DNA from: Hormiphora californensis
Taxonomy: Eukaryota; Animalia; Ctenophora
NCBI GenBank assembly: GCA_020137815.1
Contig: CM035357.1
Location: forward strand, 5,890,001 to 5,954,000
Reading direction: 5' to 3'
Length of the DNA: 64,000 bases
The first letter of the stretch is position 1. Each line of letters begins with the position of its first letter. The translations under genes were made by a program, and so were the position numbers. The notes under the pieces are model-generated. The model saw only the letters and a list, made by a program, of their open reading frames with translations. It did not search any database and had not been told where the DNA came from. This document shows, in pieces, positions 3,077-49,608 of the stretch.

Positions 3077-28172
<25,096 letters not shown>

Positions 28173-35706: not shown

Positions 35707-36611
35707 TCAATGAAGAGCATTATGAATTCCCATCAGATCCTTGAAATATTTCACTGTCTTCACTTTCAGCTCCATAGTTGCATGTTCGTCACAGATAAAC
35801 ACTGCTTTAGCGTGTTGCTGTAGAGCAGTGATAGTCCACATGTGATTGATACCACCTTCAATAGCATAGTGAAGCGCCAGGGCTTTGTGGGCCCCTGTAA
35901 TCAGAATCATAACCTCTTTCGCATCCAAAATGGTCTGAACTCCAACATGTAAGAGCCTGGGTTGGAACCTTAGATTCATCTCCATCAAAGAACCGAGCAT
36001 TAGCCTGGATGGTTTCTTTATTCAGATGTTTTAACTCGGGTTCTGGATACCAAGCTTGATCCAGGCTCGTTGAACGCTATGTGTCCATCAGGTCCAATAC
36101 CACCAACAAATAAATCAATTCCACCTGCCTCAACTATCATCCGCTCATAACTCTCACACTCTGCAACCAGATCTGGCGCATTGCCATCCAATATGTGTAC
36201 ATTATCAGGGTGGATGTCGATGTGTTTGAAAAGGTTTTCCCACATGAAGGAGTGGTAACTCTCTGGGTGATCTCGGGGAAGGTTCACATACTCATCCATG
36301 TTGAATGTCTTAACGTACCTGAACAATAATGATTTTAGTGAGGAGAGGAATAATGTTAGAAGACAGACAAGCTCTTGAAACTTGATGAAATTCAAAGTTT
36401 AAACCTATCTTGTTACCTACTTGAAACTAAGTTTTCCTGCCTGTACGAACTTCACAAGTTCTCGGTACATGCCCTTGGGTGTTCCCCCTGTTGGTAGACC
36501 CAGGACAAAGTATTTCCTGTGATCAGGGTTCGCTTCAAGGATCCGTGCTTTGACGTAGGATGCTGCCCAGAACGCAACATCCTGTTCTGTGTCCCTGATT
36601 ACCAAGCGCAT
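35707..36611 (-). CDS. GNPDA: Glucosamine-6-phosphate deaminase (two apparent +1 frameshifts)
   Basis: [55 protein letters not shown]; intron 36420-36319; one extra base at 36026 and one at 35947. Confidence 0.93.
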
Positions 36612-36739: not shown

Positions 36740-37379
36740 AGGGTGCCGTTATGATATGGGTGTCAACAAACCTGTTTACAGGTGTGTGCTGCCAAAAAAG
36801 TACCCTGCACTAAAATGGCGCTAAGGGTCGGTGTGCAGCGTTCATTCACTAAAAAATTTAGCCCTAATTTTAACGTTGGCCCGTCGCGACGGGTGCGATT
36901 ATAATCTGGGTGCCTTGCATCCTGTTTAGAGGTACGTGCTACCTAAAGAGTACGCTTAGACCAACTTTTTTCAAACAGCTATGCCACACAACCCCATGAC
37001 CAATTTTAGTAAACTAAACGGTATCTGATAGAGGATATATAGTGCTAACCGATAACCCTAAACAAAAACCTAATCCGACCCTAACAACAGCCCTAACCCG
37101 TCTCGACCGCCAAAATCGATGAATTGTTAGCAATGGAAAGCAGGGCGCCGTTACGATCTGGGTGTTTCGTGGCCTGTTTACAGGTATGCGCTGCCAAAAA
37201 AAGTTGATTTACTGAAATGGCTCTAACCGCCAAACCACTCAACCGTTTTGGCTTATTTAAAGTTTATCTGGTAGGAAATATCAAGGCCTAACCCCAACCC
37301 AAACCCCAACCCTAACCCTACTTTAGCCCTAACCGGCTAACTTTAGCCCTAACGGCTAACCCTAAAAAACCGTTTGTCA
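36740..37379. repeat. Repeat family with a unit of about 268 bp and telomere-like CCCTAA motifs, left part
   Basis: Same unit as 42676-43190; interrupted at TGTCA by a LINE and resumes at 40269. Confidence 0.75.
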
Positions 37380-38836
37380 ATTCAATTCAATTCAATTGTT
37401 ACATTTGATACCCCGCAAATTGACTTAATATAGCTAAGAGATAAACGCAAAAAACAGAGAAAAAACTCCTAATTAAAACGCCAGAGCTCTTAAGCCAGCC
37501 TTCTTATGCGGCAGTCCATACAGAAACAGTAGATAGATAAAAGTGGGTACACACTGAGGGACTGTATGAATAAGTTAATTAAGATAGTTATAATTTAAAA
37601 AAGAAGAAATTAGAATTCCAATCATAAAAAGAGTAGATTAATGATTAAAAGTTGATTCAGTAGATAACGGTGTAGATAAGCTATACGATTACTTGGTAAA
37701 AAAGATATAAAAAATCACTGCACTCAGTATAAAAAGGGGCTAGACTCGGAACTCAGAACAGAACAAGACACGTAAAACAAGACAGACAGCGACTAGACAG
37801 ATCTCTTCTAACAAAGCTACAGATCAGCCAGCAGGACCGTATGACTTGTCAAAGAGGTGCGTCTTCAGCCTCGATTTGAAGAGTGACTCATCTGTGCAGC
37901 TTCGAATTGTTTGAGGCAGGATATTCCACAGTCTCGGTCCTGCTACTTGAAAAGCACGCTGAGAAGTCTTATACTTAGTGGAAAAGTCTTTTTGGAGAAG
38001 TGTTGGATCATCATCATGTCTCAGTGATTTGCACTTTAGTTGCCGCCTTTGTATTAGACTCTGTAGGTAGGATGGTGCTAGATTGTTGATGCACTTGAAA
38101 ACCATAAGACAGATCTTGTAGTCAATTCTCGCTGTGACAGGAAGAAAATGCAGCTGCTTTCTCAGTTCTGTTACTCCTCTCCATTGCCACCTTCCAAAGA
38201 TGAATCTTGTCGCTGCATTCTGCACTTTTTGAAGGCGGGTGATGTCACTCTTATCAGCTCCAATCAATAGGCCATTGCAGTAGTCTATGCGAGAGTGTAT
38301 AAGGGAGTGAACCAGCTGGACTTTGTTTTTCTTTGACAGTTTGTCGCCGATGCGCCTCAGGTTGTGTAAGGTCATGTTGCAGTCCCTGACTACTTTGGAG
38401 ATATGGGCTTTCATGGTGAGCCTTTCATCAAATATAACTCCTAGATTCCTTGCCTGTTCCGAGGGACTGATGTACGTTGCCGGTTGATCAGATCTACGCA
38501 GAGAGAAAGACTCATCATGAGCGATGGGATTTGTAGTTTTGTCAGTCCGCGATGATATAAACAGTAGTTCTGTTTTGGAGGGGTTGAGTTTCAAATAACT
38601 CGATGCCATCCATTGCTCGATTTCAGAGAAACATTGTCGAAGCTGATCTTCATTTTGTGTCCAGTTGTTGTTGGTAAACTTCACATATATAATAAATAAA
38701 TAATAAAAATGACAGTTTATATCCCGCACTGACACAGTTTTAATTACAGACAACTCGTTTTCCTTCATTTGAAAGGGACTGCAGCAGACTGCCTGCTCCT
38801 AGCACGGTTCTCTGATAACGGTGAATTAGTCGGGAA

Positions 38837-39802
38837 CTATCCCACTTGGATAACATTGTTACGGATAAAATAGCAGCCGTCTGGATCTTCTAGTCGTATC
38901 CGTTTCAAAGTGGACCTGAGAGCTTTTTGCTCCTTCAGTTCAGAGGGCGTTAGATCCGGAGATAGATAAACAGCCGAAAACTGTTTGGAGTCTTTGAGGT
39001 TTCGTGCTTTTTTGAGCAGCGCCAGGAGAGTCGCTCTCCTCTCCAGGGATACTAAGAGCGGTCTAGGACGTTTCTCATTTCTTTCCCCGATGCGTTTTAT
39101 CGTTGTCACTTTCGGTTTCTCTTGCAGTTCCTCAAAAAGTTCGTCTAAAGTAGTTTTAGCTACTCTATCGGTTGTTTCTTGGAGACCAAACACAATCAGG
39201 TTCTTCTCTCTTCCGGGCTGTTGGACGGGAGTAGGGTGGTGCGACGTTAGTGGTTTTACCACTTTAGGGGAGGTTGCAGCACAATTCTGTGCAAGCACAG
39301 AAGAGTAGGCTTTCACCTTCTTCACCGAAGTTGACACTGCACTTAGTTGTTGCTTTTGGGCTTCAATAACCGTTTGCTGAAGCTCAATCACGCTAAGACG
39401 GTGGCGATCAAGTTCTTCTTTGCATTCACGTAGTTGCTTCTCGAGTTTTTCTGCGCTGATAACATTTTCAAAATTGTTCATTGTTGCTCTGGCAAGTTTC
39501 ATACTGGAGAGAAAAATACGCGAAGTAGCCTCAACAATTTCATTCGCAGTTAAGTCCTTGAGACAGTGACTGAAGTACGAACCCCAGTGATTGCAAGGGG
39601 AAGCTACACTGTCGTTGGTTAACATTGAGTCGGGTGCAGCTTGGATCGATTTATAACATTGAATAAACTGATCCGATGTGATACTCGTCGTGTTGGGATC
39701 ATCAGCAGAGTTCAACCAGTAAACTTCAGACACAAAGTCGTTTACTGTCTCTTCCAATCGTTTTATCGCAGGGTTATCGCCCTCGTACTTCGTTTCTGAC
39801 AT
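38837..39802 (-). CDS. LINE ORF1-like protein (coiled coil plus RRM/CTD-like region)
   Basis: MSETKYE...; coiled coil, then REKNLIVFGLQE...RIG...RPRPLLVSL...VYLSPDLTPSE; same architecture as 26336-27304. Confidence 0.8.
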   Translation of the reverse strand: MSETKYEGDNPAIKRLEETVNDFVSEVYWLNSADDPNTTSITSDQFIQCYKSIQAAPDSMLTNDSVASPCNHWGSYFSHCLKDLTANEIVEATSRIFLSSMKLARATMNNFENVISAEKLEKQLRECKEELDRHRLSVIELQQTVIEAQKQQLSAVSTSVKKVKAYSSVLAQNCAATSPKVVKPLTSHHPTPVQQPGREKNLIVFGLQETTDRVAKTTLDELFEELQEKPKVTTIKRIGERNEKRPRPLLVSLERRATLLALLKKARNLKDSKQFSAVYLSPDLTPSELKEQKALRSTLKRIRLEDPDGCYFIRNNVIQVG

Positions 39803-39858
39803 TATCAACGTTTCGTTTTTCTGCCCTTTGGGGCTGTTACATCGGATTCATCTTCCTG

Positions 39859-39893
39859 CTCAAATTAATTTGTTTAAAGTAGTGTTGAAAAGT
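39859..39893 (-). other. Genomic copy of a ctenophore trans-spliced leader exon (ACTTTTCAACACTACTTTAAACAAATTAATTTGAG)
   Basis: The sequence is read directly. The match to the Hormiphora/Pleurobrachia SL is from memory and needs confirming. It is followed by mRNA-like sequence rather than a GT donor, so it is not an SL RNA gene. Confidence 0.8.
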
Positions 39894-40611
39894 CGTCTGC
39901 GTAAAGGTGAATCCTCATCGCATGTTTGGCCGCAATTTTCTCGAGGTCTTTCGTGAACAGAATAAACATAAGGGGCCCCAAGATGGATCCCTGGGGCACT
40001 CCAATGTATACATTTACTTCAGCAGACTGGTAATCACCTATTTTGACAACAGCTTTCCTTCCTTCGAGATAAGAAGAGAACCATTTGAGAGCTGTTCCAC
40101 TGACTCCATACATGTTCTGCAGGCGACGTAGAAGGATTGTATGAGGAACAGTATCAAAGGCAGCAGAGAGATCGAGTAGAAGGAGTACTGCCTTACTTTT
40201 CTTGTCAGTCATCACGAGTAGATCATTAAAGATCTTCAGGGTGGCCGTTTCACATGAGTGTTTCTTTCTGTCAGCACTCAAGAAACACCCAGATTTTAAC
40301 GCTGGCCTGGAAAGCACCCAGATTTTCACTTTGCCCGTTGGCAAACGCCGCTGACCCCCGCAGTGCGGGATAAGGCAGCTTAGGCAGCGCTTTTCAACGC
40401 TTTTCAACTTTGCCCGTCGCGACGACAAAATTTGACGAGAAAATTTTCAGCGCGAGCGCGCGGCTCAAGAAAGTCAGTTTTTGCAGCGTTTTAACCATTT
40501 GTGTCCGGACACAATTCGCGCGTTACATTAAATGCAACGCATAATAATGATAAACTGTTCCTGCGCGCGATGTTTTTCAATTCAGATTTTTTTTAACTGT
40601 CTGATTTTCCA

Positions 40612-42675
40612 GGGATCCCTAAAAAAGTGTAAAGTCCATTTTTATTCAACTGTTCACCCTCCAACTCGTGCGCGTGCGATATTTAAATTTACGCTGCGCG
40701 CGCTACACGTTAACATGTGATAGACGCGCAAAACAATTCCGCGCACGACTTTGGGGGTGAACAGTTGAAAAAAAAGTTTTGACAAGTTTTACAAGTTTTT
40801 GACAAGTTTGACAAGTTTTAAAAATAATTCAGGTCGGTGTTACCCGACCCATGAAAATACAATAATAATTTAATTAATAATTTAAAAACACACTCAAAAG
40901 ATAAATATAATTAAAAATAAAAGAAAATCTGGAGAAGTGGGGAGGGAGATGGGGGAGGGAGAAGGGATCAAGGTATGTGTGTATGGGGGGGGGGGGGGGG
41001 TGCATAGTGATAGAGTTGGTGGTAAGTGTAGAAGAGAACAGTGTGGTTAAGGGAGTGGGAATGACCGGGTGGAAGGGTGAGAGAGAAACAAGATGCTAAG
41101 AGAGAGGTGAACAGCAGTGAGGTGGAGAGGGAGCACTTAAACCGGGGGAAAGGAAGAAGGGGATAAAGGTGGCAAGACAACGTGCGGGAGGCGGGGGACC
41201 GGAGGTAAAGGAGGACTGAGGCTGACGAAGAGCACTGAGAGCAGCTAGGGATGGGTTCCAGGGAAGGGGCAGCGAGGTCTGGAGAAAAAGGGTGAGATGA
41301 AGGAGGGCCGGAGGTGAGGAATGGAAAAGGTGAGAGTACCAGAAGAGCAAGAGGCGAGACGATGATCCGGATCAAGAAGGGGGGGGGGGGCTGGAACGAG
41401 GAGGGAAATGGAGGTCAAACCAGCGGCGGAGACGACGAGAAGGAAGCGGAGTGTCGGTGGAGCCTGGCTGTCGGGGACGGGGGACTGACGGAGAGATACA
41501 ACTCAGAGAGAGGAAGTAGTTGGCCACATTGATGCCTGAGTGAGATCGAGGTCGCGCAGCGACCGAGATCGATCTCACATCTAGGCCTCCGGTCCGTTAT
41601 TGATTTTAGAGCAAACTTTTTCAAAGACCTGGCTGCAAGGAACTACTGAACCGATTTACATCTCGTTTGTTGCTCCTGCCAGATAATTGTCTTTAGTTTT
41701 ACGGAAAATACCCGCGAGTATCAGCATTTGAGGAATAGTGGGTCAAAATTGACGCTAAACATGAGCAATTCTTTAAAGACCTGGCTGCAAGCTCGTACTC
41801 GGTCCTGGGACAATCTGCGGGTACTGGGGGAATCGTCATGGCCTTGTGAGTATGGGAAAATACCCGCCGATTCATCACGATGCGAAATGAGGCCATAATT
41901 GACCTTTGAGTAGTGCTAGGTCAGCTAAAATGGTCTCCAAAAACGGTATATCACGCGCGATCTGCTGAAAACGTGCTTTATATCGCGCGCACGTGAGTTC
42001 TTGCTCTCAACGGGCCGGGATCCTATTATTCGCGGAGCGAGAATAGGATGCGATGGATCCAAAGGAAGTAGATGGAAACCACGGACAGGAAGAAGGGCGG
42101 TGAGGGCTGGAAACGGTGAAGGAGGGCCAGAGATTGAGGTGAGGAAGGAGGAAGGAGAGCACCCAGTGGAGTATAAAGTCCATTTTTATTCAACTGTTCA
42201 CCCTCCAACTCGTGCGCGTGCGATATTTTAATTTACGCTGCGCGCGCTACACGTTAACATGTGATAGACGCGCAAAACAATTCCGCGCACGACTTTGGGG
42301 GGTGAACAGTTGAAAAAAAATGGAGTATAAAGTCGGATTTTTTGAAGTTGTCACCCCCCCTTCTCGTGCGCGGAATGTTTTTGCGCGTCACATCACGTGT
42401 TAACGTGTGGTGTGCGCGTCAAAATTGATAAATTTCACATGCGCGGTCATTTTGGGGTGACAACTTCAAAAAATCCGACTTTAAAGTCCATTTTTTTTTC
42501 AACTGTTCACCCAAAATTGAAATTTCAGTGAAATTTAGAATTTTCGTGGCGCGCGCTACACGTTAACATGTGATAGACGCGCAAAACAATTCCGCGCACG
42601 ACTTTGCGGGGTGAACAGTTGAAAAAAAATGGACTTTAAACGCTGTGTAAATACTGAACTTTTTTAGGGGTCCCT
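40612..42675. mobile_element. Putative non-autonomous DNA element with hairpin subterminal repeats of about 140 bp
   Basis: Short inverted ends CCCTAAAAAAGT / ACTTTTTTAGGG; repeated TTCAACTGTTCACCC...GGGTGAACAGTTGAA units at 40630-40775 and 42175-42640. Confidence 0.5.
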
Positions 42676-47307: not shown

Positions 47308-48972
47308 TTACCTGGGGTAAAATAAAATATATAGGGTAGTAGTAGTATTAGCTGGAGCAGTAGTAGTATTAGCTGGAGCAGTAGTTTGAACAACAGGTGG
47401 TTTGGTAGTTGGATCAATAACAGGGGGAGGTTTCGTAGTAATACGCCCAGATTCGATAAAGAATAGAGGGTCCACTACTTTACTTGATGAACAAGCACAC
47501 CATTTGTTATGACTCTCACAGCATGGTACAACATTGCCATTCCCGCTCCAGTCCACAGTTGATTTGAAAGTGCTCTCAATCGACTTGTCAATATCGTTCC
47601 TAAAGTTATCTAGAGTTTGGTAAAACTCCACCGTAAGATTGGTTAGAGGAGTGGACTCCGCTGGATCAACAGATAAATCAAATACAAGAGGTGGATCGTG
47701 TAACACAAACCCGGTTCCTTTGTGTCCACTGCAGTCAGGTCTGGGATTGGTAGCGAAGTATATTTTGTAGCTATTCCACCTCATTGCCCATAATTCCTGG
47801 AGTTGATCAGGGATGAATAACACCCTTGAGGAGGGTGGTTGGAGGAAAGAGAGGGGGACACCGTCAAACACACGATCTGTTGGTAGGGAAAAACCAACGA
47901 TTTGAGCGATAGATGGAAGTATATCCATGGCACTGGAGAGCGCATTTGAAACGGTTCCTGGTTCTATTTTACCCGGCCAGGACGCGATAAAAGGTACCCG
48001 ATGTCCACCCTCCCAGGTCGTCATCTTTCCAGTTGAGCCTCCCCCATAAGCAGTTTTTTGGTACTCTCCTACAAAGGGGAAATGAGACCCCGCCAGCTCA
48101 CATTTATACTCCCACGGTCCATTATCTGAAGTGAATATGACCAGGGTCTCTTCAGACACACCAAGACCATAGACAGTGTCCAAAATCTCCCCGACAAAAT
48201 GATCAATTTCCATGAGAGTGTCCTGGAAGTGTCCGACCCCGGAGGCATTTTGGAACCTCGGGTCAGTGGCTAAGGGCACGTGGGGTTGTGCTAGTGGTGC
48301 ATACAGAAAAAAGGGTTTCTTTCCATACACGTGCTCACGAATGAAGCCTTTAGAAAATTCAACGTAGTTGTTTGTTAGTTGGTTAAGGTTTGCAGGTTGC
48401 TGTACGATGTCTCTGTTTGCGTACAGAGGGACGGAGTTATGCCACGCTGTAGGTTCCCCACAAACAGAACTTATTTTGACATTGTAAACTGGTCCATCAG
48501 TCACACAGCCCATATCGTTTGAGAATGGGATGCCAAAGTAAGTGTCAAACCCATGACTGAGAGGGTGAAACTTGTCCGTAATTCCCAGGTGCCACTTTCC
48601 CACGATTCCAGTTGCATATCCTTCATTTTTCAGAAAATGTGCAATCGTATTTTCCTTTTCGGGGAGACCACCAATTGAGCTTGGTCCAAAATTTCGAATT
48701 ACTCCCGTTCGTTGGGCGAGCCTGCCCGTCAAAAGTCCAGCCCGGCTCGGGGTACATACGGGGGCGGCACTGTGGTAGTCCGTGAACCGGATGCCCACAT
48801 TAGCGAGGCGGGTTATGTTGGGGGTAAAGGGGTTGGATGGGTTGTTAGGGGTGATGTCCGCATATCCTAAATCATCCGCCATGATGAGAATGATGTTGGG
48901 TGTCTCGGAGGTAACATGGTGGAGACATATCAGGAAAAGTAGCAAGTATGGCGATCTGAAATGTCCTGACAT
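47308..48972 (-). CDS. Arylsulfatase (ARSA/ARSG-like), single long exon
   Basis: PNIILIMADDLG, formylglycine motif CTPSRAGLLTGR, GKWHLG, FTSDNG, GKMTTWEGGHRVP; hydrophobic signal after MSGHFRSP. The C-terminal end runs into low-quality sequence. Confidence 0.92.
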   Translation of the reverse strand: MSGHFRSPYLLLFLICLHHVTSETPNIILIMADDLGYADITPNNPSNPFTPNITRLANVGIRFTDYHSAAPVCTPSRAGLLTGRLAQRTGVIRNFGPSSIGGLPEKENTIAHFLKNEGYATGIVGKWHLGITDKFHPLSHGFDTYFGIPFSNDMGCVTDGPVYNVKISSVCGEPTAWHNSVPLYANRDIVQQPANLNQLTNNYVEFSKGFIREHVYGKKPFFLYAPLAQPHVPLATDPRFQNASGVGHFQDTLMEIDHFVGEILDTVYGLGVSEETLVIFTSDNGPWEYKCELAGSHFPFVGEYQKTAYGGGSTGKMTTWEGGHRVPFIASWPGKIEPGTVSNALSSAMDILPSIAQIVGFSLPTDRVFDGVPLSFLQPPSSRVLFIPDQLQELWAMRWNSYKIYFATNPRPDCSGHKGTGFVLHDPPLVFDLSVDPAESTPLTNLTVEFYQTLDNFRNDIDKSIESTFKSTVDWSGNGNVVPCCESHNKWCACSSSKVVDPLFFIESGRITTKPPPVIDPTTKPPVVQTTAPANTTTAPANTTTTLYILFYPR

Positions 48973-49608
48973 ACTCTTCTTCTTCTTTTTCTTTGGAGCA
49001 GCTGGTATGTTGCCAGTCGGTGTTAAGGATCTGAAGGCTTCCTCAAGTGACACATACTCTATAAAAGGGTTAATAATTGTTAACTATTTGTTTTTGTTTG
49101 TTCGTTTGTGGTGTAGGACCACTTGATCCTATAAAGTGTCGTGAAGGCTCAGTGACTGGGATATTGAAATGAAATGTGTATACCGGAAGCGACTACATCA
49201 ACGTGAGACCCCAGTCGGCGAGCGGAGTCACTCTTTGAAAATGGCTTCGTAGTGATAGCACCTCGTCTCTGGAACACCCTCCCGGCAACTGTAACCGTTT
49301 GGGCCTACAAGGAAACTGAGCTTGAGAAGCTCCAAAAAGTAACAAAAGTAACAAAAGTAGCATAGTACCTTCCAAAAGTATTAGGAAGATAGCATATCTT
49401 CCAGTAGTAGCTTATCTTCCAACCAACTGTCAGAGCATTGGCTCCAGGAAGCAAAGCGAATACAATAGACCAATGGTAACTTGTCTGATGTCTACACGCT
49501 ATAATGTTCCATCTCATGCTCTCTCTCCACATCCCCTATACTCTCTATATAGTAGAGGAAAAACATAGCACCCAGCAGTACACTGTGCGTGATGTGATCA
49601 CAGAGAGA

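Follow-up and report, generated by a model that had tools for sequence, protein, structure and literature searches.

How a copy of the host spliced leader came to stand in genomic DNA, at the head of an intact open reading frame (ORF) and in the middle of the reverse transcriptase (RT) gene of another retrotransposon, is the question raised by this locus of the ctenophore Hormiphora californensis. The stretch of DNA that was analysed (the window) is 64,000 nt long and all coordinates refer to it; the features of the locus lie on the minus strand, in the order RT frame to HLYADD, a 35-mer, a 5' untranslated region (UTR), the ORF, a 3' UTR, a tail and the RT frame again, the insertion amounting to 1.2 kb. 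The answer that we favour, with a probability of roughly three in four, is that the insert is an ORF1-only LINE-type element which was likely copied from leader-trans-spliced RNA by a borrowed RT and likely receives a fresh leader in each round.

The 35-mer (39859–39893; hereafter leader A) agrees at 35 of 35 positions with the 44-nt leader published for H. californensis, of which it represents the 3' end (PMC8527503). It occurs once in the window and in none of 100 shuffles, the expectation by composition being about 10^-15. According to the available part of the same source, the species has shared first exons of 35–48 bp, carries the leader on 56% of its Iso-Seq reads and holds 718 leader copies in its genome (PMC8527503). 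In the RNA run X7, a metatranscriptome for which the species is not fixed, 240 contigs mapped with depth almost solely on the leader, and in two of them (records 29 and 30) the leader was found at the contig end, adjoining unrelated sequence. Both results bear out the identification of the 35-mer as the ctenophore leader, which a sequence-only reading of the window had already made. Loose ends at 39893 show the upstream letters of the leader in runs X3 (25 contigs), X5 (25) and X10 (21); set against the published 44 nt, the leader of the insert is about 9 nt short. At the locus leader A is followed by CAG and the UTR of the element and not by a GT donor, which rules out an SL RNA gene as the identity of the 35-mer. 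Leader A was found in none of the viral contigs searched.

Two further observations concern leader copies in general. At 39858–39859, 11, 13 and 9 contigs of X3, X5 and X6 continue from leader A plus C into diverse other sequences, and leader copies not followed by GT are therefore common beyond the ORF1-only family. One contig each of X1 and X5 joins the leader region (39888) to a high-copy repeat at 40629, so that some leader copies adjoin this repeat.

Downstream of the leader, at a GAG-CAG joint, lies a 5' UTR of 56 nt (39803–39858), which is identical at 54 of 56 positions to that of L001, one of three metagenome loci (L001, L002 and L003) examined from 96 candidates. The UTR contains a four-codon upstream ORF (39837–39851, minus strand), and L001 has the same one. 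The 321-aa ORF is intact from ATG to stop (38837–39802), and the 127 nt between stop and tail (38710–38836) contain no ORF2, as is also the case in L002 and L003. The 3' UTR ends with a GCGG..TATAAA motif (GCGGGATATAAAC, at 38727), and both the host LINE and L002 have similar 3' ends; the insert closes with 20 nt of tandem TTA/TTTA repeats (38690–38709), no poly(A) being found at its 3' end. Intact ORF, short UTR, LINE-like 3' end and tail, as well as the ORF1-only anatomy, had all been described from the sequence alone and are present, the tail in the TTA/TTTA form. The 3' end gave no other blastn match within the window; the short motif alone is common to the insert and the host LINE, and their tails differ. 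Folding of the 3' ends, performed without a shuffle control, disclosed no shared stem-loop, and Rfam returned two weak matches, both outside the insert and far under gathering. HAL1 elements have poly(A) tails. HAL1 proper was rejected as the identity of the insert, which ends in a tandem repeat without poly(A) and would work in a HAL1-like manner.

The insert resides in a LINE, the 5' part of which (39891–40270, minus strand) runs to YADD and matches RVT_1 with an E value of 2.9e-16. The 3' part (37377–38689, minus strand) continues from YVKF through an RT frame of 287 aa to a stop at 37824 and is followed by a 3' UTR, the GCGGGGTATCAAA motif at 37416 and an AATTG tail. By its motifs this LINE is putatively L2-like. 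Its 5' boundary was placed near 40269 by contig joints and loose ends. The LINE is itself found within a high-copy repeat (37300–37380 and 40269–40340), and many contigs join 37331–37381 to 40269–40284; the locus thus consists of three nested layers, repeat, LINE and leader-headed insert.

Two contigs, X1 record 1 (1642 nt) and X10 record 9 (1146 nt), traverse the RT gene without the insert: their match reaches 39891 and is taken up again at 38682, the two parts being separated by 13 letters. Loose ends at 39891 in X5 and X6 give the same empty site, reading YADD-S-Q-L-YVKF, so that the insert-free target is present in four runs. X1 record 1 spans both halves of the LINE with 6 and 23 differing letters (29 in about 1630), and the LINE is, to judge from its sequence, young and 5'-truncated. 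Because the sequence of the empty site is known, the junctions can be described to the base. The first three nucleotides of leader A, ACT (39891–39893), are also target sequence, 6 bp of target have been lost, and the target resumes at 38689. The microhomology had previously been given as AC and has to be corrected to ACT on the evidence of the empty-site contigs, whereas the estimate of about two lost codons agrees with the 6 missing bp. The RT had been said to resume at IYVKF; it does resume in frame, but the 'I' is a junction codon and the target reads YVKF. No target-site duplication of at least 6 nt is found at the insertion. The 3' tail, the 3-nt microhomology and the 6-bp target truncation are hallmarks of LINE-mediated insertion, and short target truncations accompanied 5 of 25 de novo insertions of a zebrafish L2 element, as reported in the accessible part of that study (PMC2666801).

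The same junctions bear on the possibility that the locus is a chimera of the assembly, in which a cDNA-like or repeat contig was merged into the LINE. Looking for sequence across the junctions, which the sequence-only reading had required of raw reads, gave a divided outcome: the empty target was found in four runs, and no contig among those listed crosses the L2-leader junction, or the 3' junction, in five runs (X1, X3, X5, X6 and X10) labelled as DNA by a guess. The latter result is what a chimera would produce, and the same caveat has been raised for Schistosoma, in the part of that paper available (PMC5832876). Contigs omit rare alleles and the 3' junction sits in a repeat outside the contig mapping; the insertion may exist solely in the animal that was assembled. 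A merged contig would hardly let the LINE resume in register after exactly 6 missing bases, nor would it give junctions with the features of LINE integration, and joins between leader and element recur in independent contigs and in gene models of Pleurobrachia bachei. An artefact is thus very improbable, and we regard the insertion as real and young.

Searches of Pfam and of PDB sequences gave no name for the 321-aa ORF. Two leads came from Atlas, a 0.86 cluster with Transposase_22 in 20% and a 0.89 cluster with Baculo_FP_2nd in 36%. An AlphaFold model built from 24 sequences (pLDDT 70.7, pTM 0.32) shows a long helix at residues 86–173, RRM-type elements at 201–282 and, at 286–320, a small C-terminal domain (CTD). 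The ten best Foldseek matches of this model are all to human L1 ORF1p (E values from 2.6e-5 to 4.4e-4), and L1 ORF1p takes ranks 1–3 in the VIA-align comparison, with a Z score of 9.9 for 2w7a (rmsd 2.6, 86 residues aligned) and of 9.5 for 2yko (rmsd 3.3, 127 aligned), the best other RRM reaching Z 8.6. The ORF is accordingly predicted to encode a type II (L1-like, coiled coil-RRM-CTD) ORF1p, and the predicted fold sustains its earlier description as ORF1-like; the pTM of the model and the lack of a Pfam name weigh on the other side. Type II ORF1 occurs in L1, CR1 and L2 elements, according to the accessible text of PMC4120745. The insert resembles the type II ORF1 of CR1/L2 elements in domain order and in having 2yko as its best structural match; it differs from these elements in lacking ORF2 and in having about 85 additional helical residues at the N terminus, a part that the fold searches barely covered.

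The insert had been suggested to be a single mRNA written back into the genome; it is one copy of a large family under purifying selection. Among 1253 candidates 28 relatives were found at E≤0.001, and a profile search retrieved 10,904 representatives at E≤0.001. When 11 of 58 cluster rows (7 fragments, 1 without contig, 3 of a distant cluster) and 2 entries shorter than 300 aa were excluded, 45 full-length entries remained; 42 of these lie on contigs of at most 2 kb, with a median of 1372 nt, near the 1.2 kb of the element. In L002 and L003 little sequence follows the ORF: they close, without ORF2, in (TTTGTA)n and (ATTGAT)n tails, respectively, and the sequence of L001 ends at the stop. The window ORF is 79% identical at the amino acid level to that of L001, 53% to that of L002 and 83% to the protein P0046; the relatives that bear a name are P. 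bachei gene models. In all six pairs compared dN/dS was 0.16–0.20, from which it follows that the protein is needed and under purifying selection; dS between the window element and L002 is about 2.2. Many variant contigs in each run, differing flanks before the leader and the empty target site show the family to be multi-copy and interspersed. No member was found among 27 viral and 90 prokaryotic contig candidates. On these comparative grounds the insert is a member of a large, multi-subfamily, ORF1-only non-autonomous LINE-type family and not a one-off retrogene; its subfamilies all appear to be leader-headed. One P. bachei gene model, P0083, consists of a family ORF1 fragment fused to PSF3 (GINS) exons and is likely to reflect a family copy inserted at a host gene.

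The size and anatomy of the family also bear on the proposal that the insert is a retrocopied, shortened ORF1 transcript of an autonomous LINE with two ORFs, or that a host ORF1 gene was domesticated and gave rise to it as a processed pseudogene. Such an origin is favoured by the purifying selection seen in the ORF and by the 3 of 45 contigs that exceed 2 kb. It is nevertheless difficult to reconcile with the many subfamilies on contigs of about 1.4 kb, with subfamily-specific tandem-repeat tails instead of poly(A) and with the many variant copies in each run, and we consider it quite improbable.

Members of the family are preceded by one of two leaders at the same joint. L001 begins with 26 of 26 nt of leader A at the same GAG-CAG joint, which by itself is no proof of leader renewal because its UTR is nearly as conserved (54/56). 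L002 begins with a different, leader-like 42-mer (leader B). Of 248 proteins, six contain leader B as an in-frame translation, each with a different upstream flank; it matches at 14 of 14 residues in P0025, P0046, P0239 and P0240, at 13 in P0078 and at 12 in P0224, P0025 and P0078 being P. bachei gene models. P0046 carries leader B at the joint where the window element has leader A, and the B-headed ORFs of P0046, L002 and P0025 are 38–52% identical, with unrelated UTRs. Most family proteins start past the leader, which is then invisible in them, and since the frame concerned is closed by a stop in leader A, its 0 matches in protein N-termini are meaningless.

The contigs give a similar picture at the nucleotide level. 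Leader A is joined to the UTR in X3 records 5 and 7, X5 records 9, 14 and 15 and X6 records 22 and 23, the short side of these joins being at most 29 letters (X3 record 7), below the 31-letter rule. A 3-letter gap of X6 record 23, the place of which in the sequence is not given, could reflect use of a second AG. X3, X5 and X6 have loose ends at 39863 in which leader B adjoins a UTR like that of the window; the X3 form is 5'-truncated and runs into an AT-rich flank, and in the X5 contig the leader B letters equal the leader of L002 exactly over 19 loose letters. Among the best 24 of 79 loose-end rows no non-leader upstream form was seen at the joint, and no stacked leaders were found in the window, in L001, in L002 or in the six leader-reading proteins. 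Leader B found no support on host mRNAs in the literature and host proteins searched, and it was absent (0 matches) from the prokaryotic genomes; when unrelated proteins were searched for it, the one of two candidates that was returned proved to be a family member.

Because leader B is constant across divergent ORFs and leader A equals the present-day host leader, the simplest reading is that the leaders come from the host and not from the ancestry of the element, and the constancy of the leaders fits renewal by trans-splicing. A rival reading is a leader captured once or twice and since fixed as a genome-templated 5' end under selection, for example as an internal promoter. The tree of leader types needs two changes, as low a number being obtained in 500 of 500 shuffles, and is compatible with a single change from B to A; a UTR can be highly conserved, as seen in L001, and a promoter role has been proposed for a retroposed leader, in the accessible part of PMC6050394. 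A fixed 5' end would, in contrast, hardly be expected to match the present-day host leader letter for letter, or to preserve the leader B letters shared by the X5 contig and L002 despite a dS of about 2.2 and unrelated UTRs. We judge it improbable.

The mechanism that we propose for an element with renewed leaders starts from what the locus and its family display: leader, UTR, ORF and tail in place of 6 bp of the LINE RT and, at family level, a fixed joint that is preceded by leader A or B, with flanks that are unrelated to one another. The predicted coiled coil-RRM-CTD ORF1p would package the element RNA. Since the element is missing an RT, it would be mobilised in trans: an ORF2p of the CR1/L2 group may recognise the 3' end and prime reverse transcription at a nick, and the 3-nt microhomology would serve to join the 5' end, at a point where some 9 nt of the full leader are missing. 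In the last step, the weakest of the series, the new copy would be transcribed by read-through, the terminal AG of the DNA leader would act as trans-splice acceptor, and splicing would restore the same 5' end. To this re-splicing at the leader's own AG we give a little less than even chances. It is consistent with the single AG of leader A and of leader B, in each case at the 3' end, with the lack of stacking in the sequences named above and with the absence of a non-leader form among the rows listed. At GAG-CAG tandem acceptors CAG is usually preferred. The step is disfavoured by this, because the GAG-CAG joint would normally be used at CAG. Read-through past the insert is possible, since the insert shares its strand with a glucosamine-6-phosphate deaminase (GNPDA) gene (35707–36611, minus strand), located downstream, and with a sulfatase-like ORF (47308–49083, minus strand), located upstream. 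Location of the insertion within a GNPDA intron was rejected, the gene starting at 36611, downstream of the insert. In X7 the depth over the element UTR (39770–39839) was zero, a result that counts against our reading.

The main rival to re-splicing at the own AG shares the trans-spliced intermediate with our reading but assigns it to rare master copies that keep their own promoter and outron, the leader-headed copies being mostly dead-end daughters. This is the usual mode for a trans-spliced gene; it accounts for the fixed joint and for the lack of stacked leaders in the window, L001, L002 and the six proteins, and it avoids the GAG-CAG joint, an awkward acceptor. Under this arrangement non-leader upstream forms should exist, and their absence from the best 24 of 79 loose-end rows argues weakly against it; moreover, each subfamily would need an outron-bearing master of its own, although spliced RNA loses the outron. 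Such masters seem to us rather unlikely. Re-splicing without masters would, in its fullest form, amount to a promoterless retrotransposon with the host leader as its whole 5' regulatory apparatus, a trans-splice trap in read-through RNA, which we advance as a tentative proposal. If it is correct, the sole AG of the leader would lie in an AT-rich stretch and a fresh capped leader would be swapped in with the joint kept to the base. Repair would then extend to copies with a truncation inside the leader, the RNA of the element would resemble a host mRNA, and element copies may account for many of the 718 genomic leader copies of Hormiphora.

Non-LTR elements must regain their 5' end with each copy, and internal promoters, self-cleaving ribozymes and insertion into transcribed arrays are the known ways of doing so. 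If our reading holds, host trans-splicing is another way, and a transposon lifestyle would be tied to SL trans-splicing, the repeated origin and upkeep of which in animals is debated. The leader is a built-in tag of element copies. Our reading could also account for the leader copies that ctenophore genomes contain by the hundreds and that are counted but unclassified in the available part of PMC8527503.

The components of this arrangement are known separately; their combination in ctenophores was not found in the literature searched, which covered few subscription papers. Within the same range no account of ctenophore retrotransposons that are leader-headed or ORF1-only came to light, the accessible parts of PMC7986045, PMC4664967 and PMC4558846 hold nothing on ctenophore leaders or on the insert element, and the six supplementary files of PMC3795323 gave 0 matches. 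ORF1-only LINEs have been described as HAL1 (L1 clade), HeT-A (Jockey) and Ag-Sponge (CR1), in the parts of the accounts available to us (PMC5753468, PMC5786205). Like these, the insert family encodes ORF1p alone, has a LINE-type 3' end and would obtain RT in trans; unlike them, it has the host spliced leader as its 5' end instead of a LINE-derived 5' UTR, and its host is a ctenophore. In flatworms, leader copies fused to LTR or LINE sequences have been noted at 597 discarded loci (PMC12582326) and in six elements (PMC5832876). As in the insert, a genomic leader stands with a retroelement and was taken by the authors as an integrated trans-spliced transcript; in the passages available, these are side notes on elements that are not ORF1-only and come without family anatomy, fixed joint, empty site or an argument for renewal. 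About 30% of TE Iso-Seq reads in Hydra carry the leader (PMC12220107), and Hydra TEs thus use host trans-splicing as proposed for the insert; that observation was made at the RNA level, and the leader as a DNA 5' end does not figure in the accessible part of the account. The leader-relic retrogenes of dinoflagellates (PMC6050394, as far as available) had been drawn as a parallel from the sequence alone. The likeness holds in that a leader in DNA marks a retroposed trans-spliced mRNA, and it fails for stacking: dinoflagellate relics belong to host genes and are often stacked and decaying, whereas the insert is selfish and has a single leader that shows no decay, and stacking was absent from the window, L001, L002 and the six proteins. 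To these systems the present locus adds an empty site at base level and two leaders directly visible at one joint.

The window contains a second, distant ORF1-only element (26073–27394, minus strand), with a 322-aa ORF (27304–26336) that shares 25% identity with the main ORF and matches its profile with an E value of 1.6e-35. It has a (TTA)n tail and a 9-bp target duplication (at 26064 and 27395), sits within an intron of a WD40-containing gene, to which it is antisense, and its closest relatives are also found on contigs of about 1.3–1.4 kb. A leader is absent from its 5' end, and a distant ORF1-only element without leader in the same window counts against our main reading. Between 10080 and 16019 (minus strand) there is an intact frame of 1365 codons, with endonuclease, RT and RNase H-like motifs recognised by eye, and a frame of 344 codons upstream of it; this is probably a full-length LINE of another clade, and the scan of the window gave no leader match for it. 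Long tandem arrays of a 23-nt unit and another long-period tandem array are found within 9456–22000 and 24100–25700.
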